Positions 6,454 to 55,156 of a DNA stretch of 64,000 nucleotides are shown here, in pieces. Where the stretch lies: positions 4,113-68,112 of the forward strand of contig JAVBLM010000005.1 of assembly GCA_031553535.1 (NCBI GenBank), read 5' to 3'. A program made the position numbers and the translations under genes. The DNA comes from Bacteroidales bacterium. GTDB taxonomy: Bacteria; Bacteroidota; Bacteroidia; Bacteroidales; WCHB1-69. The notes beneath the pieces were generated by a model that ran no database searches, had not been told where the DNA came from, and worked only from the letters and a program-made list of their open reading frames with translations. Every line of letters starts with the position of its first letter. The stretch's first letter is position 1.

Positions 6454-6461
6454 ATATCTTT
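6454..6461 (+). promoter_or_regulatory. Bacteroidetes-type -7 promoter box (TAnnTTTG)
   Basis: TATCTTTG, 56 nt upstream of the ATG at 6518. An ATTG lies 15 nt further upstream as a possible -33 element. Confidence 0.45.
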
Positions 6462-6517
6462 GCTAAAAATATTTTTCAACTTTATATAGGAATTCCATCA
6501 CCCGTAAAAAATAATTT

Positions 6518-9388
6518 ATGAAAAGAGCAGTCATTATATTAATAATCCAATACATGGTAAGCATTTCCTTTTCCCAGAAAATCAGCCTGGAGGCAGATAC
6601 ATTTAGGTTGGCCAATGGGTTGAAAGTGATTTTGTGTGAGGATCATTCCAAACCGGAAATTTTTGGGGCTGTTTGCATACATGCAGGCAGCAAAAATGAT
6701 CCTGTAGATGCTACCGGAATGGCTCATTATTTTGAACACATCATGTTTAAGGGAACCGATAAAATCGGAACGACCGACTGGGAAAAGGAGAAAATCTTTT
6801 TGGACAGTATTTCTCTTTTTTATGATCGATTGCATGAAACTTCCGATGCAAAACAAAGAGAAAGCATACAAAAAAAGATCAATGAATTGAGTATTGAAGC
6901 GTCCCAATATGCCATTCCCAATGAAGTGTATACCATTTTGAAGAAAATGGGAGGAAAACATATCAATGCTTTTACAAGCTATGATGTTACTGCTTATTTT
7001 AATTCTTTCCCTTCTAATGAGTTGGAGAACTGGATGGATGTATATATGGAACGATTCCGTAATCCGGTTTTCCGCTTGTTTCAATCGGAGTTGGAAACCG
7101 TATATGAAGAAAAGAACATGTATGATGACAATCCTGCATCCAAGTTTATGGAAGATGGGATGAAGCTATTTTATGGGGAACACCCCTATGGCCGTCCGGT
7201 TATTGGTTATAGCGAGCATTTGAAAAATCCGCAAATAGCGCGGATACAAGACTTTTTCAATGCCTATTATGTTGCCAATAATATGACGTTGGTTCTGGTA
7301 GGGGATTTCAACAGCAAAGAAATCAAACCGTTAATAGTATCAACATTTGGGAAAATGCGTTCAGGGAAACTTCCCGGGCAAATATCATATGTTCTTCCCG
7401 AAATAAAAGGAAAGCAAATAGTCAATACACGGCAAACGCCCATAAAAGTCGGAGCAATTGCTTTCAGGGGTGCTTCTTCACATCATCAAGACAGATTGGG
7501 ATTGGAAATATGTTCGCGTTTGTTTTCCAACGATGCCTCCACCGGATTGTTTGATAGGCTGGGAACCGATAACAAACTCATGATGGCGCAGATGATGAGT
7601 ATGTCGCTGAAAGAACACGGGTTGTTTGCAATTCTTTATATGCCCAAAATACTTGGGCAATCGCACGCAAAAGCCGAAAAGCTTATTTTCGATTGTATTG
7701 ATTCTATCAAAAACGGATATTTCAGTGATGATTTGCTCGAAGCTATCAAAACGGAATATGTCTCTTCGCTGATACAAGAATTTGAAAATATGGAAGGAAA
7801 ATTCATCAAGCTCTTATATGCCGAGATGGAAGGAAATAACTGGAGTGATTTAATCACTAATATAGAAACGGTAAATAATTTTACAAAGCAAGATATGATG
7901 GATATTGCAAAGAGATATCTGGGGAATGACTGTTTGGTTTACCGTTCAAAAATGGGTTTCCCAAAAAAAGATAAACTCAAAAAGCCGGACTGGAAACCTA
8001 TTCCATCCCAAAATAATGACCGGTCTTCCGGTTTTGCTCAGGCAATTGCCGGGCGTCCTGTTTCTGAAATCAATCCGCAGGTTATAGATTTCAAAAATGA
8101 TATCTCCACGAAAACATTGAATGATAAATATACGGTATATGCGGTAAAGAATCCCTATAATGATATCTTTACATTGAATATTATGGCTAATTACGGATTA
8201 TTGAATGATAATGAATTGGATTTTGTGATTGAGTATTGGCAATTGCAGGGAACGACATCCAAAAGTAGTGATGAATTCAATCTCATCCTGCAAAAACTGG
8301 GAGCTTCAATTGAAATAAAGGCTCTCCATGACAAGTTCATTATTTCAATCAAAGGGTTTGAAAAAGACCTGGATACTATCCTACGACTTTGTAGTGAGAA
8401 GCTGTATTCCCCGGGCAATGATGAATCAAAACTGGCGTTGCTCGTCGACAATTATATGGCAAGTATCCGTTATAATAAAAAGGATGCATCTACTTATGGG
8501 GATGCGATATTTGAATATGCTTTGTATGGAAATCAATCACAATACTTACGCACCCCGACTTTAAATGAAATAAAGCTGTTTACAGGAAATTATCTGCTTG
8601 AAAAAATGACCAAGCCTTTTCAACAGGACGGATGTATTGCTTTCGTAGGAAATACGCCGGTTGATATATTGGAACAATATGTAACGGATGCTTTTCAATG
8701 GGACGTTACTACGCCTGTAGAAGAACTATCTTTCTTGGAAGAAAAAGAATATACGGAAAATAGGTTTTTTTTTATTCACAATAAAACATTGCGTCAAAGC
8801 AATATTCATTTTTATGTTCGGGGAGAGAATACGAGTGAACAAAACAAATCAATGATCAAGGGCTTCAATGCTTATTTCGGTACGGATATGTATTCTCTTG
8901 TTTTCCAGGAAGTCCGGGAGCTTCGTTCATTGTCGTATTCGGCAGCAGCAATCTACCATAGCGATGTTTTCAATCGAAAGCCGGGATACCTGTCTGCATA
9001 TATGGGAACTCAATCCGATAAAACGGTAGAAGGGATCAACGCCATGCGTGATTTGATTCTCAATATGCCTCAAAAACCGGATAAATTTCAAACGGCAAAA
9101 GAATCTTTAATGAAAAGCAATGCGTCGGATTATATTAATTTTCGTAGTATTCCGGCTTATGTTTATCTTTGGGGAAAACAAGGATACACACAAGACCCAC
9201 GCATCGAACAGAATAATCACATTAAAAGTATGGTATTTGACGATTTGCTGGACTTCTATCGAACAACAATAGCAAAAAAACCGGTTATTATTACGCTTTC
9301 GGGAAATATGAAACAGGTCAAGAAGGAAGAACTTCAGCAATTCGGAAAAATGACTGAACTGCAATACAAGGATATTTTTAAAGAATAG
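6518..9388 (+). CDS. M16-family (pitrilysin/insulinase-like) zinc peptidase, exported
   Basis: 956 aa with a signal peptide and the inverted zinc motif HxxEH (AHYFEHIMFKGT). The length fits two fused M16 halves. Confidence 0.85.
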   Translation: MKRAVIILIIQYMVSISFSQKISLEADTFRLANGLKVILCEDHSKPEIFGAVCIHAGSKNDPVDATGMAHYFEHIMFKGTDKIGTTDWEKEKIFLDSISLFYDRLHETSDAKQRESIQKKINELSIEASQYAIPNEVYTILKKMGGKHINAFTSYDVTAYFNSFPSNELENWMDVYMERFRNPVFRLFQSELETVYEEKNMYDDNPASKFMEDGMKLFYGEHPYGRPVIGYSEHLKNPQIARIQDFFNAYYVANNMTLVLVGDFNSKEIKPLIVSTFGKMRSGKLPGQISYVLPEIKGKQIVNTRQTPIKVGAIAFRGASSHHQDRLGLEICSRLFSNDASTGLFDRLGTDNKLMMAQMMSMSLKEHGLFAILYMPKILGQSHAKAEKLIFDCIDSIKNGYFSDDLLEAIKTEYVSSLIQEFENMEGKFIKLLYAEMEGNNWSDLITNIETVNNFTKQDMMDIAKRYLGNDCLVYRSKMGFPKKDKLKKPDWKPIPSQNNDRSSGFAQAIAGRPVSEINPQVIDFKNDISTKTLNDKYTVYAVKNPYNDIFTLNIMANYGLLNDNELDFVIEYWQLQGTTSKSSDEFNLILQKLGASIEIKALHDKFIISIKGFEKDLDTILRLCSEKLYSPGNDESKLALLVDNYMASIRYNKKDASTYGDAIFEYALYGNQSQYLRTPTLNEIKLFTGNYLLEKMTKPFQQDGCIAFVGNTPVDILEQYVTDAFQWDVTTPVEELSFLEEKEYTENRFFFIHNKTLRQSNIHFYVRGENTSEQNKSMIKGFNAYFGTDMYSLVFQEVRELRSLSYSAAAIYHSDVFNRKPGYLSAYMGTQSDKTVEGINAMRDLILNMPQKPDKFQTAKESLMKSNASDYINFRSIPAYVYLWGKQGYTQDPRIEQNNHIKSMVFDDLLDFYRTTIAKKPVIITLSGNMKQVKKEELQQFGKMTELQYKDIFKE

Positions 9389-9663: not shown

Positions 9664-9970
9664 TGGAGGTTCCCGAACCCACCCCAGCAATGCCGGACAT
9701 GGTTTCGGAGGTTCCCGAACTCACCCCAGCAATGCCGGACATGGTTTCGGAGGTTCCCAACACCGCCCCAGCAACTCCGGGCATACCTTCGGACGTTCCC
9801 GAACCCTTCCCAGAAACATCAGGCATGGTTTCGGAGGTTCCCGATACCGTCCCAGCAACTCCGGGCATACTTTCGGATTTTCCCGAACCCTTCCCAGAAA
9901 CTCCTGATATACTTTCAGAAGTTTCTGAGCCCTTTCCGACAACTGTCGGCCTATTTCCGGGAATACTTTC
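9664..9970. repeat. tandem array, 42-nt period, 7 full plus 1 partial units (array 1)
   Basis: Units start at 9664, 9706, 9748, 9790, 9832, 9874, 9916 and 9958. An example unit is GGAGGTTCCCGAACTCACCCCAGCAATGCCGGACATGGTTTC. The array is GC-rich in an AT-rich spacer. Confidence 0.9.
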
Positions 9971-24313: not shown

Positions 24314-24427
24314 CAACAAGCAAAAAGCGACAAGGGTAAAACCGATAAAAAAATAGATAAACTTTAGCCACTAACAACTGTTGCTGTAACTTCCTGTAAC
24401 TTGTATGACTTCCCGTAACTTCTATTT
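24314..24427 (+). repeat. partial copy (core plus right end) of the MITE-like family
   Basis: Core CAACAAGCAAAAAGCGACAAGGGTAAAACCGATAAAAAAATAGATAAA plus right end GTAACTTCCTGTAACTTGTATGACTTCCCGTAACTTCTATTTT. It abuts the OmpA stop codon. Confidence 0.55.
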
Positions 24428-28501: not shown

Positions 28502-28586
28502 TATTTACTTGGTTATTATTTTAATACTATCTCTATTTTCATTTGTTTAATCCTATTGTTTATATCTGTCTATATGTATATTCTCT

Positions 28587-28673
28587 ATCTACCTATGCGT
28601 AGATTATAAATCTACTTATGTGTAGATTCTGTATCTACCTACGTGTAGATTCTCTATCTACTTATACGTAGAT
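28587..28673. repeat. four phased palindromes ATCTAC-N6-GTAGAT, 23-nt period
   Basis: Copies at 28587-28604, 28610-27, 28633-50 and 28656-73. They lie between the DUF4469 gene stop and the lipoprotein B start. Confidence 0.9.
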
Positions 28674-28737
28674 TCTTTGCCTGCCCATGAGGGGATTTTC
28701 TCTTTCTACCTGCATAAATCCTTCTTTTGACCATTAT

Positions 28738-35649: not shown

Positions 35650-36858
35650 TTAACAGGTTTTTATAATGATGGCTGTTCCCATACCGCCTCCTATGCATAA
35701 GGAAGCCAAGCCGTATTTTTTATGGTGATCTATAAGCTCATGAACTAAAGTTACCAAAATCCGATTGCCTGATGCCCCGATTGGGTGCCCTAAAGCAATG
35801 GCTCCTCCGTTGATGTTTGTTCTTTCATCGACCCATTGTCTGGAAACGCCATGTTCTTCTATTAATTCGTGAATAACTCCTAATGATTGTGCAGCAAAAG
35901 CTTCATTCAATTCAATTAAGTCTATATCTTTAAGCTTCATATCTGCCTTTTGTAATGCTTTGCGGATAGCCGGTACCGGGCCTAATCCCATAACAGCGGG
36001 ATCTACGCCTCCCTGTCCTACAGAGATGATTTCGGCTAAAGGCTTTAATCCGAGTTCTTTTACTTTATCTTCCGATGCGAGCAGGATAAAAGAAGCGCCG
36101 TCATTTACTCCCGATGCATTTCCTGCAGTTACGGTACCTTCTTTTTTAAAGGCCGGTTTTAACATCGCCAGCTTCTCAAGTGTAGAAGTTCTGTTTGGAA
36201 ACTCATCTTTGCTAAAAGTAAGAGTCTCTTTCTTCGCGATAAGGGGAACAGGTACGATTTCTTTCTCAAAAGCACCCGAATCAACCGCTTTAATAGCTTT
36301 TTGTTGCGAATTATATGCAAACTGATCCTGTGCTTCCCTTGAAATATCATATTTCTCAGCAATATTCTCAGCCGTGATACCCATGTGATAATCTTTGAAA
36401 GCATCGGTAAGGCCATCATTTACCATATGGTCAACTGCATGCAGATTACCCATTTTATATCCGGAACGAATGTCTCCACTTAAAATGAATCCGGCTTTTG
36501 ACATGTTTTCAGTACCTCCGGCCAATACAAGGTCGGCCTCGCCGACTTTAATATCAGCATAAGCATTCATTACGGCTTTCATTCCACTTCCACAAACCAT
36601 ATTAATACTATAAGCCGGTACTTCGGGAGGAATACCTGCCTTAATAGCGGCTTGGCGGATCACACCTTGTTTCTGCCCGGCGGACAATATGTTTCCTCCG
36701 ATCACTTCATCAATCTGCTCGGGTTTGACTCCGGTTTCTGCCAGAATATTTTCAATTACCAATGCTCCCAGTTCGCCGGGGGTGAAGTTTGTTAATGAAC
36801 CCATAAACTTACCGATGGGTGTTCTTTTGGCTGCGATAATAAATACTTTCTTTTCCAT
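35650..36858 (-). CDS. acetyl-CoA C-acetyltransferase (thiolase II)
   Basis: 402 aa with motifs VCGSGMKA, NEAFAAQ, GHPIGASG and CIGGGMG. Confidence 0.92.
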   Translation of the reverse strand: MEKKVFIIAAKRTPIGKFMGSLTNFTPGELGALVIENILAETGVKPEQIDEVIGGNILSAGQKQGVIRQAAIKAGIPPEVPAYSINMVCGSGMKAVMNAYADIKVGEADLVLAGGTENMSKAGFILSGDIRSGYKMGNLHAVDHMVNDGLTDAFKDYHMGITAENIAEKYDISREAQDQFAYNSQQKAIKAVDSGAFEKEIVPVPLIAKKETLTFSKDEFPNRTSTLEKLAMLKPAFKKEGTVTAGNASGVNDGASFILLASEDKVKELGLKPLAEIISVGQGGVDPAVMGLGPVPAIRKALQKADMKLKDIDLIELNEAFAAQSLGVIHELIEEHGVSRQWVDERTNINGGAIALGHPIGASGNRILVTLVHELIDHHKKYGLASLCIGGGMGTAIIIKTC

Positions 36859-36944
36859 GAATATTATTTAATATTTAGTGATTAATACTTGATGTTAAAT
36901 TGTATCCTCTAAATCCCCTGAAGGGGACTTGTGCTTTTTGTTTT

Positions 36945-37006
36945 TGTTATTTTATCTGTTTTATCCCTTTTATCGGTTTTATCCTTTCTGGTTGTTGCAT
37001 TCTGCA
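36945..37006 (-). repeat. core fragment of the MITE-like family (inverted orientation)
   Basis: The reverse complement reads GCAGAATGCAACAACCAGAAAGGATAAAACCGATAAAAGGGATAAAACAGATAAAA, matching the core of the copies at 51844 and 54908. It is preceded by hairpin TCCCC-TGAA-GGGGA (36916-36928). Confidence 0.55.
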
Positions 37007-37008
37007 TT

Positions 37009-37668
37009 TTAATTGATCATCGATTTGAGTGAATCAGAGATGATGAGCTTCGCTTCGGTTGCTTCCTGAACCTGCTCTACTGTAAACTCCGGGTTGATCT
37101 CTTTGAGTAAAACTCCCTTTTCGGTAATTTCCATGACACCCATTTCCGTGATAATCAAATTCACTTGCCCTTTTGCAGTAAGGGGTAGGGTGCATTTTTT
37201 TAGAATTTTAGGACTACCTTTTGCTGTATGTTCCATGGCCAGGATTACTTTTTTAGCACCTACAATCAGGTCCATGGCACCGCCCATGCCCGGAGTTAAT
37301 TTACCGGGAATCATCCAGTTGGCAAGGTCTCCGTTTTCGGCTACCTGCATTGCTCCAAGAATAGTTACATCTACATGTCCACCCCGTATCACTATGAAGG
37401 AGTCGCAGGAATCGAAAGAAGCCGCTCCCGGTCGAGCTGTGATGTAACCACCACCTGCATTTACAAGGTTAGGGTCTTCTTTTCCCAGTTCCGGTGTAGG
37501 TCCCATGCCTAATAATCCATTTTCGGATTGTAATGTTAATCTCACGTTTTCGGGAAGATAATTTGGAATAATGGTAGGTAAGCCAATTCCTAAATTAACC
37601 ACGTCACCGTCTTTAAGTTCGAGAGCTGCCCGTTTTGCAATGACTTCTCTGATCTGATTTTTATCCAT
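37009..37668 (-). CDS. atoA: 3-oxoacid (butyrate-acetoacetate) CoA-transferase, subunit B
   Basis: 219 aa with the catalytic-Glu motif LQSENGLLGMGP. Confidence 0.9.
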   Translation of the reverse strand: MDKNQIREVIAKRAALELKDGDVVNLGIGLPTIIPNYLPENVRLTLQSENGLLGMGPTPELGKEDPNLVNAGGGYITARPGAASFDSCDSFIVIRGGHVDVTILGAMQVAENGDLANWMIPGKLTPGMGGAMDLIVGAKKVILAMEHTAKGSPKILKKCTLPLTAKGQVNLIITEMGVMEITEKGVLLKEINPEFTVEQVQEATEAKLIISDSLKSMIN

Positions 37669-37691
37669 GATATTATGTGTTTTTATTGTTG

Positions 37692-37699
37692 CAAATTTA
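37692..37699 (-). promoter_or_regulatory. Bacteroidetes-type -7 promoter box (TAnnTTTG) for the atoA operon
   Basis: TAAATTTGCAAC on the minus strand, 23 nt upstream of the ATG at 37668. It lies between atoA and the repeat array. Confidence 0.5.
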
Positions 37700-37710
37700 C
37701 TTTATTTTTT

Positions 37711-37917
37711 TATAATCCTGTCATCCCTTCGGGATTTTATTGGTTTGTTATCCTGTATTTTCTACAATCCTGTCATCCCTTCGGAATTTTATTGGTTTGT
37801 AATCCTGTCTTTTCTACAATCCTATCATTCCTGGGGGATTTATTGGTATATTATTTTATGTTTTCTACAATACTGACAGCCCTATGGGATTTATTTGTGT
37901 GTTATTTTACATTTTCC
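37711..37917 (+). repeat. tandem hairpin-unit array, 51-52-nt period, 4 units (left flank of the Y1 transposase)
   Basis: Units start at 37711, 37763, 37815 and 37866. An example unit is TACAATCCTGTCATCCCTTCGGGATTTTATTGGTTTGTTATCCTGTATTTTC. Each carries an ATCCC-TTC-GGGAT-type hairpin. Confidence 0.9.
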
Positions 37918-38008
37918 TTGCAATCTATGCAAACTCAACCCCGAAGGGGTGTAAAGATTGTAGCACAAAATGATATGCCATTTTTTAAACCTCGAAGAGG
38001 TGATATAA

Positions 38009-38470
38009 TTAATCTAACCATTCAAACAAATATTTTTCATCATATTCAATTTCAAATTTGTGGAGAAAATCAATGTATTCTTCTTTGAAAGTTTTCTTTC
38101 GATGATGTTTTTCCTGGTTAGTAATATATTGATATACATTTTCGATTTGCGAATGTGAATAAGAAAACGCCCCATATCCTTCTTGCCAAGCAAATTTCCC
38201 TCTGAGAAATTTTTGTTCATTTATAAAATTAGTGGAATTGTTTTTGATGTCTCGCACCAAATCAGATATACGCATTGCCGGCTGTAATCCCACAAAAACA
38301 TGTACGTGGTCGGTAACGCCATTGACGATAATTGTTTTTTGATTTTTACCAGTTATGATACCTGAAATGTATTTGAATACTTCATCACGCCAAGGTTTTT
38401 GCAATAGGTTCTCCCTGCCTTTTACAGAAAAAATATATTGAATATATATTTGTGAAAATGTGCTTGGCAT
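38009..38470 (-). CDS. Y1 (HUH) transposase, IS200/IS605 family, RAYT-like
   Basis: 153 aa with HUH motif DHVHVFV and catalytic-Tyr region WQEGYGAFSYS, then YITNQEKHH. Confidence 0.8.
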   Translation of the reverse strand: MPSTFSQIYIQYIFSVKGRENLLQKPWRDEVFKYISGIITGKNQKTIIVNGVTDHVHVFVGLQPAMRISDLVRDIKNNSTNFINEQKFLRGKFAWQEGYGAFSYSHSQIENVYQYITNQEKHHRKKTFKEEYIDFLHKFEIEYDEKYLFEWLD

Positions 38471-38526
38471 AATTTTATGTTGTTTATCTTAGATTTGTTT
38501 TATAATTATTCCATTTATAATTCTAT

Positions 38527-38680
38527 TAATTATGTCATCCCTTCGGGATTTATAGGTTTGTTTTTTCTCTATTTTCTATAATCATATCATCCCTGCGGGG
38601 TTTTATTGATTTGTTATTTTACATTTCCTACAATCTTGTCATCTTTTCGAGATTTTTTCATATATCATACTGTTGTTCTG
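38527..38680 (+). repeat. tandem hairpin-unit array, about 51-nt period, 3 units (right flank of the Y1 transposase)
   Basis: Units start at 38527, 38577 and 38629. They belong to the same family and orientation as 37711-37917 (…TGTCATCCCTTCGGGATTTATAGGTTTG…). Confidence 0.85.
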
Positions 38681-38793
38681 TTCCAATTTTTCTATATTTA
38701 ACCCCGGAGGGGTGATATAATGAATCTTCTTGTTTCTAATTGGTTTGTCTTTGTTATCATATTATCATATCGGTTAATTGTCATATTGGTTAA

Positions 38794-39582
38794 TTACCCA
38801 TTCATCCTTCTATCCATCTCCTGAGCTATATACGAAGCTACATCATCCCCGTAGCTGTTCATGCCGAATCCGGCATCATACCCCAATTCTTTGGCCAGTT
38901 CATACGTAATACGAGGGCCACCGCAGGCAAGTATCACTTTATCCCTCAATCCCTCTGCTTCCAGCATTTCCACTAATTCCGTCAGGTTTTTGATGTGTAC
39001 ATCTTTTTGTGTCACTGTCTGTGAAACCAAAAGTGCGTCGGCTTTCATCTCAATGGCTTTGGCGATGAAATCTTCGTTAGAAACCTGGCTTCCCATATTA
39101 AGGGTTTCGAACATTTCATAACGCTCAAGGCCATAGTGTCCCGCATAACCTTTCATATTCATAATGGCATCAATGCCAACGGTATGGGCATCTGTGCCGG
39201 TACTGGCACCTAATACGATGATTTTGCGTCCGATATGCTCTTTAATAAACTCATCGGTTTCTTTCATACCCATAACCGTCGATTCTACTTTGGGTACATG
39301 GATAGCCGTAAAATCAACCGTATGAACAGAAGAACCATAGCAGTTAAAAAAAGTAAATCCTTTGGTCAATTCCTTGTAATAAACTACCTGGGGATTCTCG
39401 AACCCCATTTTTTTCAATAGCTGCTTTGCTGCTTCTATCGCTTCGTCGTTACAAGGAACCGGAAGGGTAAAACTGATCTGCGTTTTCCCGTCATTCATGG
39501 TATCCCCGTAAGGTTTTATCCGGGTTAAATCTAATGTTTGATCAAAATCACGTTGTTCTGTTGAATATAATCCACCACTCAT
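38794..39582 (-). CDS. kamE: D-lysine/beta-lysine 5,6-aminomutase, beta (cobalamin-binding) subunit
   Basis: 262 aa with B12-binding motif DxHxxG (GTDAHTVGID). Its ATG overlaps the kamD stop (TAATG). Confidence 0.9.
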   Translation of the reverse strand: MSGGLYSTEQRDFDQTLDLTRIKPYGDTMNDGKTQISFTLPVPCNDEAIEAAKQLLKKMGFENPQVVYYKELTKGFTFFNCYGSSVHTVDFTAIHVPKVESTVMGMKETDEFIKEHIGRKIIVLGASTGTDAHTVGIDAIMNMKGYAGHYGLERYEMFETLNMGSQVSNEDFIAKAIEMKADALLVSQTVTQKDVHIKNLTELVEMLEAEGLRDKVILACGGPRITYELAKELGYDAGFGMNSYGDDVASYIAQEMDRRMNG

Positions 39583-41141
39583 TATTGTTTTCCTCCTTTC
39601 ATGATTTTTATAAACGGGTTAAAATAGTTGTCTGCTTTTGCTACCACTCCGGCTAATCCTTTTCCTCCTGTTTTGGAACGTTTGATATCTGCAAAGATAC
39701 CTTTTTCCAATGCATCAAAAAGACCTTCTTTTTCAATGCTACTTAATAATTTGTGAGCTTCATCCAATACATGTTGTGCTCTTTTCCGGATGATGCCGTT
39801 TTCTTTAAACTCAACTTCATCACCGATGTTTTTCATATTACTGAAAATATATTTGGCATTCTCAATAGCCAAGTAGCGATCCGACATAAACGGAGTATGA
39901 ACAGCTTCGGTAATCATTCCCAGCAGTTGAAGTCCTTGTCCTGTCCAAATAGCAATTTCATTAAACAATGCATTCTGGATTTGTCCTTTAAAGATATTTC
40001 CGGTCATGAACTTGGTAGGAGGCATATATTTCAACGGTGCTTTAGGGAAAATTTCACGGGTCATTTGCGCTTGTGCCAATTCGTATAAGAACCCATTTTC
40101 GAGTTCGGGATTCATCTCAAAAGCATGTCCCAGGCCCATTTGTTCTTCGGGCATGCCGGCAAGCAGTGCCAACTGTTCGTTGATAAGGTCGGAAGCCAAA
40201 ACCGTATGTGCCTGTTCAAAAGCATCTGCCGTAGTAAGATAGTTATCTTCTCCCGTATTGATAATTACACCAGCGAAACCATTAATTGCTCTTGAAAAAT
40301 ATTGGTCGACAATGGTTCGTTGCGGGTTGATATCCCTGAATAAAATACCATACAAAGCATCGTTCAACATCACATCAAGGCGTTCCAAAGCTCCCATTGC
40401 CGCTATTTCGGGCATGCACAATCCTGAACAGTAGTTACATAATCGAATATATCGTCCTATTTCTTCACCTACTTCATCCAAGGCTTTTCGCATTATGCGG
40501 AAGTTCTCTTGGGTTGCGTAAGTTCCCCCGAACCCTTCGGTAGTTGCTCCATAGGGGACATAATCCAAAAGGCTTTGACCTGTTGTCCGGATTACGGCAA
40601 TAATATCGGCACCCTGTCTTGCAGCAGCTTGTGCCTGTATCACATCTTCGTAAATATTTCCCGTGGCAACAATAACATAAAGGTATGGTTTTGCTCCTTC
40701 CCCGATAGTCTTCAGATAATCATTGCGGCGTTGTACATTTGCTCTTATTCTATTGACCGTGGCTTGTACCAACGGGTTTATAGTTTGTATAATACGTTCT
40801 TTGGGGTTGATATTTAATGTAGTGATATCTATCTCTTCATTAGCAATCTTTTCTGCGATATCCTGAGGTTGCAATCCGGTTTCAATCATGGCATTGCCCA
40901 AATAAAAAAGTACTCCCTGGCTTAGAAGTCCTTTCTCATGTAGATGATTAACTACAATGTTTGGCAACGGGACTTCGTTGGCATCAATGCCGTCGATGCC
41001 TATTAAGCGGCATAACGTTCTTTCTACTGCAACCGTCGTATAATGGTTTACAAACTCCTGTACTTCTATGGCGATATTTTGGGCCAATTGCTTCGCTGCA
41101 TCTACCTTCTTAAAATCAAGACCCAATTTGCTGTTTGTCAT
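39582..41141 (-). CDS. kamD: D-lysine/beta-lysine 5,6-aminomutase, alpha subunit
   Basis: 519-aa TIM-barrel subunit of KamD length and sequence character, directly upstream of kamE. Confidence 0.88.
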   Translation of the reverse strand: MTNSKLGLDFKKVDAAKQLAQNIAIEVQEFVNHYTTVAVERTLCRLIGIDGIDANEVPLPNIVVNHLHEKGLLSQGVLFYLGNAMIETGLQPQDIAEKIANEEIDITTLNINPKERIIQTINPLVQATVNRIRANVQRRNDYLKTIGEGAKPYLYVIVATGNIYEDVIQAQAAARQGADIIAVIRTTGQSLLDYVPYGATTEGFGGTYATQENFRIMRKALDEVGEEIGRYIRLCNYCSGLCMPEIAAMGALERLDVMLNDALYGILFRDINPQRTIVDQYFSRAINGFAGVIINTGEDNYLTTADAFEQAHTVLASDLINEQLALLAGMPEEQMGLGHAFEMNPELENGFLYELAQAQMTREIFPKAPLKYMPPTKFMTGNIFKGQIQNALFNEIAIWTGQGLQLLGMITEAVHTPFMSDRYLAIENAKYIFSNMKNIGDEVEFKENGIIRKRAQHVLDEAHKLLSSIEKEGLFDALEKGIFADIKRSKTGGKGLAGVVAKADNYFNPFIKIMKGGKQ

Positions 41142-41835: not shown

Positions 41836-42060
41836 AGTCCATCTGTCACGACAGAATTACTCCCCGCGATTAAGGGGAACCATCCCGCCAGGACAGAATT
41901 ACTCCCCACGATTAAAGGGAACCATCCTGTCAGGACAGATTTACTCCCCACGATTAAGGGGAACCATCCTGTCAGAACAGATTTACTCCCCGCGATTGAG
42001 GGGAACCATCCCGCCAGGACAGGATTATCCTCCGAAATTTCGGACAGGCAATCTTTCAAC
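41836..42060. repeat. tandem array, 42-nt period, 4 good units plus degenerate flanking units (array 2)
   Basis: Units start at 41851, 41893, 41935, 41977 and 42019. An example unit is ACAGAATTACTCCCCGCGATTAAGGGGAACCATCCCGCCAGG. Each has a CTCCCC-N8-GGGGAA hairpin. Confidence 0.9.
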
Positions 42061-42323: not shown

Positions 42324-42331
42324 TACTTTTG
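42324..42331 (+). promoter_or_regulatory. Bacteroidetes-type -7 promoter box (TAnnTTTG) for the riboswitch-nrdDG transcript
   Basis: TACTTTTG, 8 nt upstream of the riboswitch P1 region. Confidence 0.5.
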
Positions 42332-42339
42332 TAAGTGAT

Positions 42340-42512
42340 TTATGGTTCCCGGATTTACTAAGAAGATAACAGGGATTAAAAGGGAATCCTGTGAGAGTCA
42401 GGAACTATCCCCGTAGCTGTAAGTTTCATCAAGGAGATGCATCCTTTTGCCACTGGCTATATGCCGGGAAGGCCGCATAAGTCCGAAACAAGTCAGAAGA
42501 CCTGCCATAGAA
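42340..42512 (+). promoter_or_regulatory. cobalamin (B12) riboswitch aptamer
   Basis: Conserved core elements are present in order: GGTTCC, AAAAGGGAATCCTGTGAGA, CCCCGTAGCTGTAAG, GCCACTGG, GGGAAGGC, and B12-box AGTCAGAAGACCTGCC. P1 closes as TATGG / CCATA. Confidence 0.8.
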
Positions 42513-42549
42513 AACAAGATCCGGTGCTTTCGGGCGAAGAGCAGGAGAT

Positions 42550-42649: not shown

Positions 42650-44776
42650 ATGGAGTTATTTATTATTAAGAGAGACGGAAAGAAAGAACCTTTTTCCGTT
42701 GAGAAGATTAAAAGTGCAATAGCGAAAGCTTTTCTGTCGGTTGGAAGTTTTGCGACTCAGGATGTGATTACAAATATCCTCAGCAGGATCAGCATAGGGA
42801 ATGAAACAACGGTAGAAGATATCCAGAACCAGGTGGAAGTGGCGCTGATGGCGGAACAATATTATGCTGTTGCCAAATCGTATATGTTGTATCGTCAAAA
42901 GCATCTCGAAGATAGAGAGGTTCGCGATAAGCTGAAGTTTTTAATTGATTATTGTGATGCGACCAATGCCGCTACAGGCAGTAAGTTCGATGCGAATGCG
43001 AATGTGGAAAACAAGAACATGGCCACATTGATTGGCGAACTTCCCAAATCTAATTTTATTCGCCTTAACCGCCGTATGCTTATCGACAGGCTGAAAGATC
43101 TGTATGGAAAAGAGGTGGCCGACCGCTATGTTGAATTGCTTAATAGTCATTATATTTATAAGAATGATGAAACCAGCCTGGCTAATTATTGCGCCAGTAT
43201 TACCATGTATCCGTGGTTAATTGGGGGAACGTATTCTATCGGAGGAAATTCAAAGGCTCCCACCAATTTGAAATCGTTTTGCGGCGGATTTGTCAATATG
43301 GTATTTATGGTTTCAAGTATGTTGAGCGGAGCATGTGCCACTCCCGAGTTTTTGATGTATATGAACTATTTTATCGGACAGGAATATGGAAAAGATTACT
43401 ACCGGAATACTGATAAAGTAGTGGATTTGTCAAAGAAGCAACGTACATTGGACAAAGTTATAACGGATTATTTTGAACAGATTGTCTATTCCATCAATCA
43501 ACCTACCGGGGCACGTAATTTTCAGGCTGTATTCTGGAATATATCTTATTATGACAGATATTATTTTGAGAGTCTTTTTGAGAATTTTGTTTTCCCGGAC
43601 GGAAGTAAACCTGACTGGAATTCTCTCAGCTGGTTGCAAAAACGTTTTATGAAATGGTTTAACCGTGAACGAACCCGTGCGGTATTGACATTTCCGGTAG
43701 AGACCATGGCTTTATTGACAGAAAACGGAGATGCCAAGGATAAAGAATATGGTGACTTTACCGCTGAAATGTACGGGGAAGGGCATTCGTTTTTTACATA
43801 TATGAGCGATAATGCGGATTCTTTGAGTAGTTGTTGCCGTCTGCGGAACGAAATACAAGATAACGGGTTTAGTTATACCCTGGGGGCGGGAGGGGTTTCA
43901 ACCGGCTCGAAGAGTGTTTTGACAATCAATTTAAACCGTTGTATACAGCAGGCAGTGCGTAAAAGTATTCCGTATCAATTTTTTCTGGAAGATATTGTTG
44001 ATTTTGTTCATAAAGTTCAGTTGGCATATAATGAGAACTTAAAATACATGCAACGGAAAGGAATGTTACCTTTGTTCGATGCAGGATATATCAATTTGGG
44101 GCGCCAATACTTGACAATCGGAGTGAATGGTCTGGTTGAAGCGGCAGAGTTTCTTGATATTGAGATTTCGGATAATCCCCGTTATGAAGCATTTGTCCAG
44201 CAGGTTTTGGGTATTATTGAAGACTGCAATAAACGATACCGGACCAAAGATGTTTTATTTAATTGTGAAATGATTCCTGCAGAGAATGTAGGTGTTAAAC
44301 ATGCAAAATGGGATAAACAAGACGGATATAAAGTGAGCCGTGATTGTTATAATAGCTATTTTTATGTGGTGGAAGACGATTCCGTAAATATTCTCGACAA
44401 GTTCCGTCTCCACGGCAAAAAATACATTGAACATCTTACAGGGGGCTCGGCATTGCATTTGAATATGGAAGAACATCTCAGCAAGGAACAATACAGGCAA
44501 TTGCTTCGTGTTGCAACACAGGAAGGATGTAACTATTTTACATTCAATATTCCAAATACTGTTTGTAATGATTGTGGGCATATAGATAAAAGCCAACTGA
44601 AAGTATGTCCGTCATGTAATAGTAAGAATCTTGATTATTTAACCCGCATTATCGGATATATGAAACGAGTTAGTAATTTCTCACAACCACGGCAAAAGGA
44701 GGCCGCTCAACGACACTATGCATCAATTACGAATTACGAATTACAAATTACGGAAAATGCAGATGTTGTAAGATGA
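42650..44776 (+). CDS. nrdD: anaerobic ribonucleoside-triphosphate reductase (class III)
   Basis: 708 aa with an N-terminal ATP-cone, C-terminal Zn site CNDCGH...CPSCNS and glycyl-radical motif TRIIGYM. The last roughly 17 codons run into the left inverted repeat. Confidence 0.92.
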   Translation: MELFIIKRDGKKEPFSVEKIKSAIAKAFLSVGSFATQDVITNILSRISIGNETTVEDIQNQVEVALMAEQYYAVAKSYMLYRQKHLEDREVRDKLKFLIDYCDATNAATGSKFDANANVENKNMATLIGELPKSNFIRLNRRMLIDRLKDLYGKEVADRYVELLNSHYIYKNDETSLANYCASITMYPWLIGGTYSIGGNSKAPTNLKSFCGGFVNMVFMVSSMLSGACATPEFLMYMNYFIGQEYGKDYYRNTDKVVDLSKKQRTLDKVITDYFEQIVYSINQPTGARNFQAVFWNISYYDRYYFESLFENFVFPDGSKPDWNSLSWLQKRFMKWFNRERTRAVLTFPVETMALLTENGDAKDKEYGDFTAEMYGEGHSFFTYMSDNADSLSSCCRLRNEIQDNGFSYTLGAGGVSTGSKSVLTINLNRCIQQAVRKSIPYQFFLEDIVDFVHKVQLAYNENLKYMQRKGMLPLFDAGYINLGRQYLTIGVNGLVEAAEFLDIEISDNPRYEAFVQQVLGIIEDCNKRYRTKDVLFNCEMIPAENVGVKHAKWDKQDGYKVSRDCYNSYFYVVEDDSVNILDKFRLHGKKYIEHLTGGSALHLNMEEHLSKEQYRQLLRVATQEGCNYFTFNIPNTVCNDCGHIDKSQLKVCPSCNSKNLDYLTRIIGYMKRVSNFSQPRQKEAAQRHYASITNYELQITENADVVR
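44725..44753. repeat. left inverted repeat of the four-helix-bundle cassette (AATTACGAATTAC... microsatellite-like)
   Basis: The sequence is AATTACGAATTACGAATTACAAATTACGG. Positions 44733-44753 match the reverse complement of 45121-45141 at 20/21 positions. Confidence 0.85.
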
Positions 44777-51215: not shown

Positions 51216-51453
51216 CATCTCCCATGTCAACTTTCGACAACTTCATTATAAAAATTTCATTATTAATCATTAACTCTTAATTTTTAATTTCTCCTTTCCC
51301 ATGGCAAATGTATTTTCCACTGTAAAAGGCATTCCGGATGTACCGGCAACGACTTCAGGACGCCGGAATGTGTCTTTCAAATTCTCCTGAAAGAGTTTAA
51401 ATGCTTTACATGCCTGTTTTCGATCCCGGACAGGCATTCGGGAAGTCCTGAAA

Positions 51454-51815
51454 CCCTGTTTCCATTTCCAAACAAGGAATACTATAAGTGGAAAACCCTG
51501 TTTAAAAATCAAAACAGGGAATATCGCAGGTGGAAAACCCTGTTTGAAAATTTAAACAAGGAATATTATAGCTGGAAAACCCTGTTTGAAAACGAAAACA
51601 GGGAATATCATAACAAAGATCGCCTGTTTGAAAATGAAAACAGGGTCCATTACGACGAAGACTACTTGTTTAAAAATGAAAACAGGGTCTATTATGATGA
51701 AGACTACCTGTTTGAAAATGGAAACAGGGTCTATAATAATGAAGAGTGCCTGTCTGAAAAGGGAAACAGGGTCTGTTACGATGGAAAGAGCCAGGGCAAA
51801 AACTGTTTGCCTGTA
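51454..51815. repeat. tandem array, 42-nt period, 8 units plus a degenerate ninth (array 3)
   Basis: Units start at 51454, 51496, 51538, 51580, 51622, 51664, 51706 and 51748. Each has a CCTGTTT-N7/8-AAACAGG hairpin. Two unit subtypes are present (units 1-4 versus 5-8). Confidence 0.9.
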
Positions 51816-51843: not shown

Positions 51844-52054
51844 AACAGAAGTTACGCAAGTGGAAAAGTTATAGTAACGCAATAGGCAGAAGGCAACAAG
51901 CAGAAAGGATAAAACCGATAAAATAGATAAAGCCGGTAAAACGGTAAAATTCAACATATAGAAAGTATCAAGGAATAACCAAATCAACAAGATAATAAAT
52001 TGTTTCGCGAATGATAACTTCCTGTAACTTCATTTACCTTGCGTAACTTCTTTT
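51844..52054 (+). mobile_element. MITE-like element, full copy B (211 bp)
   Basis: Left end AACAGAAGTTACGCAAGT and right end ACCTTGCGTAACTTCTTTT form an imperfect TIR. The core GCAGAAGGCAACAAGCAGAAAGGATAAAACCGATAAAATAGATAAAG is shared with copy C. Confidence 0.7.
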
Positions 52055-54907: not shown

Positions 54908-55156
54908 AACAGAAGTTACGCAAGTGGAGAAGTTATAGTAACGCAACATGCAGAAGGCAACAAGCAGAAAGGATAAAACCGATGAAATAGATAAAGTCGA
55001 TAAAAGCAAATATCATTTACTTGTTCACTCATTTACTCATTCGCTTATTTTCTTATTCACTCGTCATACAAAAATCAGAAAGGAATAATCGACTCAACAG
55101 TTAAATAACTAAATTATAACTTCCTGTAACTTCATTTAACTTGCGTAACTTCTGTT
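54908..55156 (+). mobile_element. MITE-like element, full copy C (249 bp) with perfect 18-bp terminal inverted repeats
   Basis: AACAGAAGTTACGCAAGT (54908-25) is the exact reverse complement of ACTTGCGTAACTTCTGTT (55139-56). CTAT lies immediately outside both ends and is a possible target-site duplication. No ORF inside. Confidence 0.8.

Follow-up and report, generated by a model that had tools for sequence, protein, structure and literature searches.

We analyzed a 64,000-nucleotide stretch of a Bacteroidales genome (assembly GCA_031553535.1, contig JAVBLM010000005.1, positions 4,113 to 68,112; hereafter, the window) and found, between the genes kamE and atoA, a gene for a small HUH/Y1 transposase, tnpA, surrounded by ten short hairpin units that carry a sequence tag. 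The locus is probably one inserted copy of a REPtron-like unit, that is, an IS200-type endonuclease/transposase of single-stranded DNA (ssDNA) together with its cognate hairpin repeats. REPtrons combine a REP-associated tyrosine transposase (RAYT, or TnpAREP) with repetitive extragenic palindromes (REPs), bacterial interspersed mosaic elements (BIMEs) or REP doublets forming hairpins (REPINs) (Nunvar 2010, PMC2817692; Ton-Hoang 2012, PMC3333891; Bertels and Rainey 2011, PMC3116915).

The association between the gene and the hairpins holds across the whole protein family. At three loci picked by protein identity alone, 4, 15, and 32 units were clustered on the gene, while the shuffled window gave 0.2. 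Sixteen gene-bearing loci showed one architecture, consisting of an outer-left unit, an inner-left unit, the gene, an inner-right unit, and an outer-right unit. In these loci, the left units have the hairpin followed by ATTRTAG and the right units CTAYAAT followed by the hairpin, adjacent units are ∼50–52 nt apart, and the inner-right tag overlaps or closely trails the stop codon. In canonical loci, the flanking double-hairpin modules are ∼80 nt long and inverted. We then considered 80 metagenome loci (L132–L211) chosen by protein similarity only: a left-type motif was present within 350 nt upstream in 67 of the 72 usable loci, a right-type motif was found downstream in 54 of 73, and 43 of 65 had motifs on both sides. 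Over these 80 loci and five empty-site loci, 338 kb in total, a covariance model of the unit produced 424 matches. Many of the metagenome contigs stop no more than a few hundred bases from the Y1 gene, and the hairpin arrays probably break short-read assemblies.

The repeat unit is ∼27 nt long and has the consensus CTAYAAT-NNTNN-CA-YCCC-TTC-GGGR-TT, which can be divided into the tag CTAYAAT, 5 nt, CA, a 5-bp stem with a TTC/GAA triloop, and TT; as a search pattern, it can be written CTAYAATNNTNNCAYCCCNNNGGGRTT. When folded as ssDNA, the unit forms a 5-bp stem and a 3-nt loop reading TTC on one strand and GAA on the other, and the C(UUCG)G tetraloop proposed in the preliminary description was thus replaced by a predicted triloop. 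The C-GAA-G triloop of the CCC-GAA-GGG strand is known to form unusually stable DNA mini-hairpins. With up to three mismatches allowed, the core TCATCCCTTCGGGATT occurred nine times in the window in comparison with 0.75 expected, a count reached in 0 of 100 shuffles, and eight of the nine matches fell at 37721–38715. The preliminary description placed an exact core in each unit, but only two of the seven same-strand units contain it and the others have one to three mismatches. The covariance model, derived mostly from units of other genomes, identified exactly 10 units in the 64 kb (E ≤ 0.002), all of them within 37710–38726, with the next match at E = 0.06. The arrays reported on both sides of the gene were recovered by Tandem Repeats Finder, one with a period of 52 nt at 37697–37916 (4.3 copies, 79% matches) and a second at 38521–38655 (2.6 copies), while a hairpin with a GC clamp (37937) and a 27-nt repeat, previously listed as separate elements, turned out to be reverse-complement members of the same unit family. 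No Rfam family covers the unit, and the sole match at it, Acido-Lenti-1, scored 17.8 bits in comparison with a gathering score of 37 bits.

In the window, tnpA (38009–38470, minus strand) is bracketed by inverted double-hairpin modules, and further units lie outside them. In the sense of the gene, one right-type unit (38726–38700) and three left-type units (38654, 38602, and 38550) precede tnpA, and two right-type units (38013, over the stop codon, and 37963) and four left-type units (37891 to 37710) follow it. The left inner unit (38523–38550, plus strand; 31.6 bits and E = 1e-5 with the covariance model) is located 53 nt 5′ of the ATG and, in the sense of the gene, reads as the hairpin and then an ATTAAT tag. 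The right inner unit (37986–38013, minus strand; 22.5 bits) overlaps with its tag the last tnpA codons and the stop codon (GAT TAA TTATATCACCTC...), as is the case in most of the 16 gene-bearing loci. Inverted repeat arms of 28 nt and 82% complementarity (37986–38013 and 38525–38552) bracket the gene. The left outer unit (38576–38602, plus strand; 37.5 bits) has the position of the outer-left unit of the 16 loci, and the right outer unit (37937–37963, minus strand) is the best match of the window (38.5 bits) and the only one to fit the exact pattern used in the GTDB scan described below. With these loci as a template, the two outer units would form the ends of a canonical core element of 666 bp, 37937–38602.

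Outside the core, a degenerate left-type unit with the stem TCTTT/GAGAT (38628–38654, plus strand; 30.0 bits) comes third in the 52-nt array upstream of the gene, and a right-inner-like unit (38700–38726, minus strand; 22.0 bits, E = 0.002 for the match at 38700–38721), one copy of the 27-nt repeat, marks the far upstream edge of the block. Downstream of the core and directly upstream of atoA, four left-type units form an array with a period of 52 nt (37697–37916, plus strand; units at 37710, 37762, 37814, and 37865; 28–37.7 bits). The order of gene, two right units, and then left units recurs at other loci. A metagenome scan with a pattern for the window-specific 52-nt linker gave no match and, thus, no second array of the window's type.

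The stem of the unit covaries. Detection by the tag at 9 of 10 positions was too noisy, with 19 chance matches per 100 kb against 62 observed, and was abandoned. To avoid circularity in the stem test, units were instead chosen by the tag alone at 10 of 10 positions, no more than 400 nt from a seed match and with the seeds left out; this resulted in 66 units, of which approximately one was expected by chance. Among the 49 distinct ungapped units, 89.8% of the stem cells pair in comparison with 76.9% in shuffled data (a level reached in 0 of 500 shuffles), all five stem pairs vary on both sides, and slid controls pair at 16–64%. The pair 15–25, for example, is UA in 17, CG in 15, GC in 9, and AU in 2 units. 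The two copies of the 27-nt repeat (37985–38015 and 38697–38727) differ, as stated in the preliminary description, at 4 of 27 positions, two of which are compensatory (CCTC/GAGG versus CCCC/GGGG); given the 49-unit alignment, this single compensatory change is part of a family-wide pattern. The spacing of the units is also regular: 255 of 448 intervals between units of the same orientation are 49–53 nt long (mode 51), across loci with differing linkers, with minor peaks at 42–44 and ∼34 nt. The main peak is compatible with five turns of B-DNA.

Comparison with close relatives indicates that the whole block that separates the stop codon of kamE from the start codon of atoA (37669–38793, minus strand; 1,125 bp), containing tnpA, the ten hairpin units, and AT-rich flanks, is an insertion. 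The adjacent genes are on the strand of tnpA and encode the alpha (39582–41141) and beta (kamE, 38794–39582) subunits of lysine 5,6-aminomutase on one side and the B subunit of 3-oxoacid CoA-transferase (atoA, 37009–37668) and a thiolase (35650–36858) on the other. The closest homologues of the CoA-transferase (93–94% identity) come from five contigs of uncultured Bacteroidales with the same gene order as the window, and on all five, the kamE stop is separated from the atoA start by 11 nt (AACAGAATATT) instead of 1,125 nt. The final 13 nt 5′ of the ATG of atoA in the window are still similar to this ancestral spacer. The empty site agrees with the earlier proposal of an insertion between the two genes and means that the gene and all ten hairpins came together or grew after the arrival, with no array pre-existing at the junction. 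A unit of this kind is able to split operons, and here, it parted kamDE from atoA.

At the kamE-side edge of the block, Tandem Repeats Finder and a repeat search identified a 16-nt tandem duplication, ATTATCATATCGGTTA, in 2.2 copies (38761–38796). Toward the other edge, we read from the sequence a candidate Bacteroidetes –7 promoter element, the TAAATTTG box (37692–37699, minus strand), 23 nt 5′ of the ATG of atoA and inside the block. It fits the Bacteroidetes –7 consensus TAnnTTTG, and a weak sigma-70-like match is found near it at 37694–37667. Only one other contig contained the exact protein of the window (Logan SRR23967707), and its 5,266 nt compared were 100% identical to the window, revealing no strain variation in that range. 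Within the same operon, the spacer between atoA and the thiolase gene (36859–37008) measures 150 nt in the window, in comparison with ∼31 nt in the close relatives. The additional stretch contains 9-mer repeats and a terminator-like hairpin (36914–36927) and is a second, unrelated small gain. The preliminary description considered the hairpins at 36916 and 9630 to be related to the units around tnpA; they have neither the tag nor a score with the covariance model and resemble ordinary terminators.

The hairpin unit also occurs without the gene, scattered through the extragenic DNA of several phyla. When the exact pattern was searched for in GTDB genomes, one per species, at least 120 stretches were found. 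Those listed belong to Bacteroidota, Ignavibacteria, Melioribacteraceae, Anaerolineae and other Chloroflexi (including a 3.1-Mb contig), Brocadiaceae, Calditrichaceae, Nitrospirota, Kiritimatiellae, Chloroherpeton, and Methylocucumis, and several genomes hold at least two to four stretches each. The 120 listed stretches include 15 with a Y1 gene, 46 with none within at least 1.5 kb on either side, and 59 too near the tile edge. Only 7% of the motif centers fell within long open frames, in comparison with 78% of all bases, and among the tiles selected by the motif, gene-less modules and tandem arrays outnumbered the gene copies.

The gene-less copies took three forms. Clusters of four hairpins, ∼140–200 bp in length, retain the order of the gene-bearing loci minus the gene, and their conservation ends at the feet of the outer hairpins; no target duplication was visible at 13 such clusters. 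Other copies are back-to-back modules of right plus left type, some with perfectly complementary arms, and the remaining form consists of same-orientation tandem arrays of up to 18 units.

The minus-strand reading frame for a 153-amino-acid HUH/Y1 protein, noted already from the sequence, was confirmed by profile searches: the protein matched Pfam Y1_Tnp (PF01797) with E = 7.8e-24 and 84.6 bits (cut-off of 23 bits) and the NCBIfam family IS200/IS605 transposase (transpos_IS200) with 63.6 bits (cut-off of 55 bits). Its motifs are DHVH (H55 and H57), WQ (95–96), Y115, Q119, and H122–H123, and in an alignment with the TnpA of IS608, DHVH corresponds to DHIH and YQYITNQ to QYIENQ. H55, Y115, and Q119 are invariant in 16 of 16 family sequences, and the C-terminal tail (residues 124–153) is conserved over the same number. 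The gene is intact, with its catalytic residues in place. A profile of 16 members searched against the Protein Data Bank (PDB) matched ISDra2 (1e-5), IS608 (2.5e-4), and the Sulfolobus TnpA, all of them IS200/IS605 transposases, while no chain of a TnpAREP was matched even at E ≤ 10. An AlphaFold2 model on a 21-sequence alignment had a mean predicted local distance difference test score of 53.7, too poor for a fold search.

Quentin et al. (2018; PMC6006769) described the TnpA-Y1 subclass 1.2, found in Bacteroidetes and Cyanobacteria, by the signature Y---Q--HH, DH[IV]H, WQ, a length of ∼148 amino acids, and a conserved C-terminal tail. The window protein carries this signature (DHVH, WQ, YITNQEKHH, 153 amino acids, and the tail, compared with table 1 of that study), and by these published motifs, rather than the authors' hidden Markov model, it would belong to subclass 1.2; its tyrosine motif is the YxxxQ of class 1 and not YxxxNP. 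The same study reported 1.7 copies per genome, 36% identical to one another, for subclass 1.2, in comparison with 4.8 copies and 99% for IS200, and described the subclass as being without REPs, generally without terminal secondary structures, and not like an insertion sequence (IS). Its search for REPs demanded GT[AG]G within 0–2 nt of a stem of at least 7 bp (PMC6006769), and the unit described here, with a 5-bp stem and no GT[AG]G, could not be detected by it.

The family is large and conserved. A homologue search matched at least 8,000 clusters, and the best 120 are 77–87% identical to the window protein and come from Chitinophagales, Cytophagales, Flavobacteriales, and also Methylovulum. 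Between the window gene, the only tnpA copy in the 64 kb, and 16 homologues, the synonymous sites are saturated (proportion of synonymous differences of 0.61–0.84) while the nonsynonymous divergence (dN) is 0.06–0.21, and the ratio dN/dS, computable for 8 of the 16 pairs, is 0.04–0.13. Saturated synonymous sites and a low dN argue that the protein identity reflects strong constraint over a long divergence and no recent sweep. We also considered a phage or plasmid as the vehicle and rejected it for lack of support: the hairpin motif was not found in viral contigs, and no close homologues turned up among 72,556 plasmids and 50,697 phage records.

Some individual loci deserve mention. In L006 (ERZ21742408 ctg6194l, 6457–8867), the last 75–105 nt of the Y1 gene and both right-end hairpins form at least 10 tandem repeats downstream of the gene, DDE and rve transposase genes lie within the upstream hairpin array, and the HUH motif is replaced by DHVRVF. 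The junctions of the tandem copies of the gene's 3′ end are at the foot of the outer hairpin and share the microhomology AAAGAAG, and they therefore do not discriminate between the action of the enzyme and slippage. L081 (PHDJ01000002.1, 3957–5273) has 19 units around a gene with the HUH motif NHVNVF. The two largest arrays adjoining a gene, thus, belong to copies with a degenerate HUH, an anecdote with n = 2. L100 (JADLBQ010000043.1, 264–722 and 2924–3382) has two full-length genes of subclass 1.2, separated by 2.2 kb and each accompanied by a left-type array of its own. In L062 (DAONJS010000008.1, 5200–5858), a Y1 gene with 34% identity to the window protein is placed ∼190 nt from a perfect tagged hairpin, and the unit, or one related to it, may therefore also serve a more distant Y1 subclass.

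The behavior of the enzyme can be outlined by analogy with the TnpA of IS608 and ISDra2 and the Escherichia coli TnpAREP. It would bind the hairpins in ssDNA, for example at replication forks, and would read the tag beside the hairpin; Tyr115 would cut, with the metal held by His55, His57, and Gln119, and the strands would then be rejoined. Such cutting and rejoining could move and amplify hairpin modules and, occasionally, the gene-bearing unit. The binding, cleavage site, and active strand of TnpA are here postulated on the paradigms of the better-known systems (PMC6006769, PMC3333891, and PMC3479197).

Several observations weigh against the locus being a copy of a REPtron-like unit. The covariance model found no second cluster of units elsewhere in the 64-kb window. 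The ends are inverted and the IS608 scheme, with both cuts on one strand and same-orientation hairpins, is not directly transferable, which brings the system nearer to a REPtron than to IS608. Units inside one array have common linkers, so that slippage or unequal recombination could enlarge an array even if the enzyme took no part. In one Jettenia genome, three gene-less clusters of four hairpins have common hairpin modules and differing spacers, which argues against a recent burst of transposition. Finally, some of the taxon labels are those of metagenome bins, although several matches are on contigs of 0.3–3 Mb.

Other explanations account for parts of the same evidence. The system might be domesticated, with the enzyme and the phased arrays kept for the host, in processing ssDNA at the fork or in punctuating operon transcripts, and mobility being incidental, as proposed for RAYT/REPIN. 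The strong purifying selection with saturated synonymous sites, the conservation of the motif and the ∼51-nt spacing across phyla, and the low copy number and identity published for subclass 1.2 (PMC6006769) speak for this, as does the failure to find close homologues among plasmids and phages or the motif in viral contigs when 13% of IS200 genes lie on plasmids (Bertels 2017); furthermore, both in the window and at another locus (L002), the gene points the same way as a metabolic operon. We nevertheless consider domestication unlikely: close relatives lack the block although their operon is otherwise collinear, the neighbors of the tnpA-family genes vary between genomes, some copies of the family have a degenerate HUH (DHVRVF or NHVNVF), are fragments, or have split reading frames, and no host phenotype is known. 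The relatives' empty site, holding no array, also speaks against the idea that the arrays are independent satellites or terminator-like repeats created by slippage and that the Y1 element only prefers inserting there, as some ISs target REPs. Such repeats would be consistent with the many clusters lacking a gene, with the common linkers within an array, which local tandem duplication predicts, and with two of the units scoring as weak terminator-like sites on the plus strand. A terminator does not, however, need a nonstem tag, and CTAYAAT is conserved across phyla; with the units overlapping the stop codon and abutting the start codon in most gene-bearing loci and the motif being upstream of 67 of 72 genes, independent satellites seem very improbable.

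The preliminary description offered two readings of its own. According to one, a canonical IS200 of ∼740 bp with same-orientation hairpins (37988–38726) had inserted into an array already present. The two copies of the 27-nt repeat do lie in direct orientation, 712 nt apart, and the protein exceeds the IS200 cut-off of NCBIfam, but there is no array at the empty site, both copies are ordinary members of the unit family and not element ends, the core predicted at 37937–38602 has inverted ends, as do the 16 loci with their double hairpins in place of direct ones, and subclass 1.2 is reported as not IS-like (PMC6006769); we give this reading almost no credence. The other, a Bacteroidota RAYT with its own REP/BIME-like arrays, survived in its genomic part, as the tagged hairpin flanks the homologues and is dispersed without the gene, extragenic, and in clusters of alternating orientation. 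It failed for a RAYT in the strict sense. A class-2 RAYT (TnpAREP) with classical REPs would explain why palindromic repeats stand in inverted orientation on both sides of the gene and are also scattered through extragenic DNA, and some of the homologues are labeled “RayT” by JGI. Yet, the tyrosine motif is YxxxQ and not YxxxNP, the PDB matches are to IS200/IS605 transposases only, with no TnpAREP even at the E ≤ 10 threshold, and the stem lacks GT[AG]G at its foot and is 5 bp long against the at least 7 bp in the REP criteria of Quentin et al., making a class-2 enzyme exceedingly improbable.

Beyond the locus itself, we put forward a more far-reaching proposal with considerable doubt. Subclass 1.2 and the tagged triloop hairpin could form an ancient, host-retained system for processing ssDNA, with the code of enzyme, motif, and ∼51-nt spacing nearly fixed across Bacteroidota, Ignavibacteriota, Chloroflexota, Planctomycetota, and others, and the phased arrays could be sites of nucleoprotein assembly with a cellular role, more than the debris of a transposon. 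To our knowledge, every described REP/RAYT pair is lineage specific.

The window contains other repeats and elements. A cobalamin riboswitch (42326–42523, plus strand; 113.9 bits) is located upstream of a gene for the anaerobic ribonucleotide reductase NrdD with ATP-cone and NRDD domains (42650–44776, plus strand), which looks like the ordinary B12-dependent control of a B12-independent reductase; the pair adjoins the operon of the B12-dependent lysine aminomutase. Between kamD and the riboswitch, within 1.5 kb whose one open reading frame (ORF) of at least 80 amino acids spans the repeat, there is a 42-nt tandem repeat (41850–42027; 4.2 copies, 89% matches) with the hairpin CTCCCC-RCGATTAA-GGGGAA, unrelated to the tagged hairpin family. 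Another 42-nt tandem array of ∼8 copies in two overlapping registers (51451–51781), with the hairpin CCTGTTT-GAAAATG-AAAACAGG, lies in a gap with short ORFs only. GC-rich 42-nt repeats in ∼6 copies (9665–9934; also with periods of 84 and 126 nt) leave several frames open on both strands and may encode a repetitive protein segment rich in Pro, Glu, Thr, and Ser, and a 23-nt repeat with the internal palindrome TCTACCTATGTGTAGA is present in five copies at 28563–28676. Among the shorter motifs, 9-mers of the type GATAAAAYC are found at 36950–36984, 51908–51942, and 54972–55005 and 10-mers of the type TAACTTCCTG at 52015–52050, 55117–55152, and 24384–24422, in ∼4 copies each. At 51908–52050 and 54972–55152, the 9-mer and 10-mer sets are ∼110 nt apart and upstream of genes, and these tandem motifs may be candidate binding sites of regulators.

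Our search of the literature found nothing beyond PMC6006769 for the motif strings or for a follow-up of subclass 1.2 and no paper with the motif or a link between subclass 1.2 and a repeat. The subclass is widespread, with the at least 8,000 clusters matched here, and was published without IS ends or REPs, so its DNA substrate had been unknown. The window locus and its relatives provide a candidate substrate whose tag, stem, loop, and spacing are defined, and the activity of the enzyme can therefore be tested directly in vitro. The findings widen the REP/RAYT paradigm beyond class-2 enzymes and Proteobacteria; one enzyme–motif pair conserved across phyla is unusual among REP systems, and the enzyme is attractive as a compact, sequence-specific tool for ssDNA.

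Among the known systems, REPtrons share with the present one a Y1/HUH gene between inverted short palindromic repeats, extragenic copies of the repeat without the gene, often in BIME-like clusters of alternating orientation, a low copy number of the gene, and a short conserved tag 5′ of the hairpin. In contrast, their enzymes are of class 2 (YxxxNP) while the one here is of class 1 (YxxxQ, IS200-like), and their tag, GT[AG]G, sits at the foot of a stem that is longer and GC rich, whereas CTAYAAT is ∼10 nt from a 5-bp triloop stem; the tag begins 13 nt 5′ of the stem, and RTAG is present only on the opposite strand, 3′ of the hairpin. Further differences from REPtrons are the ∼51-nt spacing of the units, the near identity of motif and enzyme across phyla where REPs are species specific, and the gene-bearing unit being an insertion relative to close relatives. 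The IS200/IS605 elements (IS608, ISDra2, and IS200) have the closest proteins by sequence, with the same catalytic set of HUH, Tyr, and Gln, and resemble the present system in the gene-bearing core of ∼0.67 kb, as in IS200, in the hairpins beside the ends, and in the target duplication not being visible, here at the gene-less four-hairpin clusters. Unlike in those elements, with their same-strand hairpins, the ends here are inverted double hairpins, left type upstream and right type downstream; multiple identical copies are not seen, with one copy of the gene in the 64-kb window, gene-less modules and arrays outnumber the gene copies (among motif-selected tiles), and plasmids and phages are essentially free of the family.

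TIRtrons, or TIRYT elements (Di Nocera 2013, PMC3733652), are likewise Y1 genes with long terminal inverted repeats, some of them double palindromes, and have moderately abundant solo, dimeric, or grouped repeat copies elsewhere in the genome. Their proteins, however, are of Quentin subclass 2.1 with a long C-terminal domain, in comparison with the 153 amino acids and class-1 motifs found here, and their repeats, of GGGGWSAS and other types, are unrelated in sequence, with no tagged triloop or 51-nt spacing described. The TnpA-Y1 subclass 2.6, or RAYT group 5 (PMC6006769), similarly links a Bacteroidetes Y1 gene to atypical secondary structures without GT[AG]G that are copied elsewhere in the genome, but its proteins have NH[LIV]H, YIH[QN]NP, and ∼179 amino acids instead of DHVH, YITNQEKHH, and 153. 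In its architecture and genomic behavior, the system is, thus, like RAYT/REP pairs (REPtrons) or TIRtrons, while by protein sequence, it goes with class 1 of IS200/IS605.

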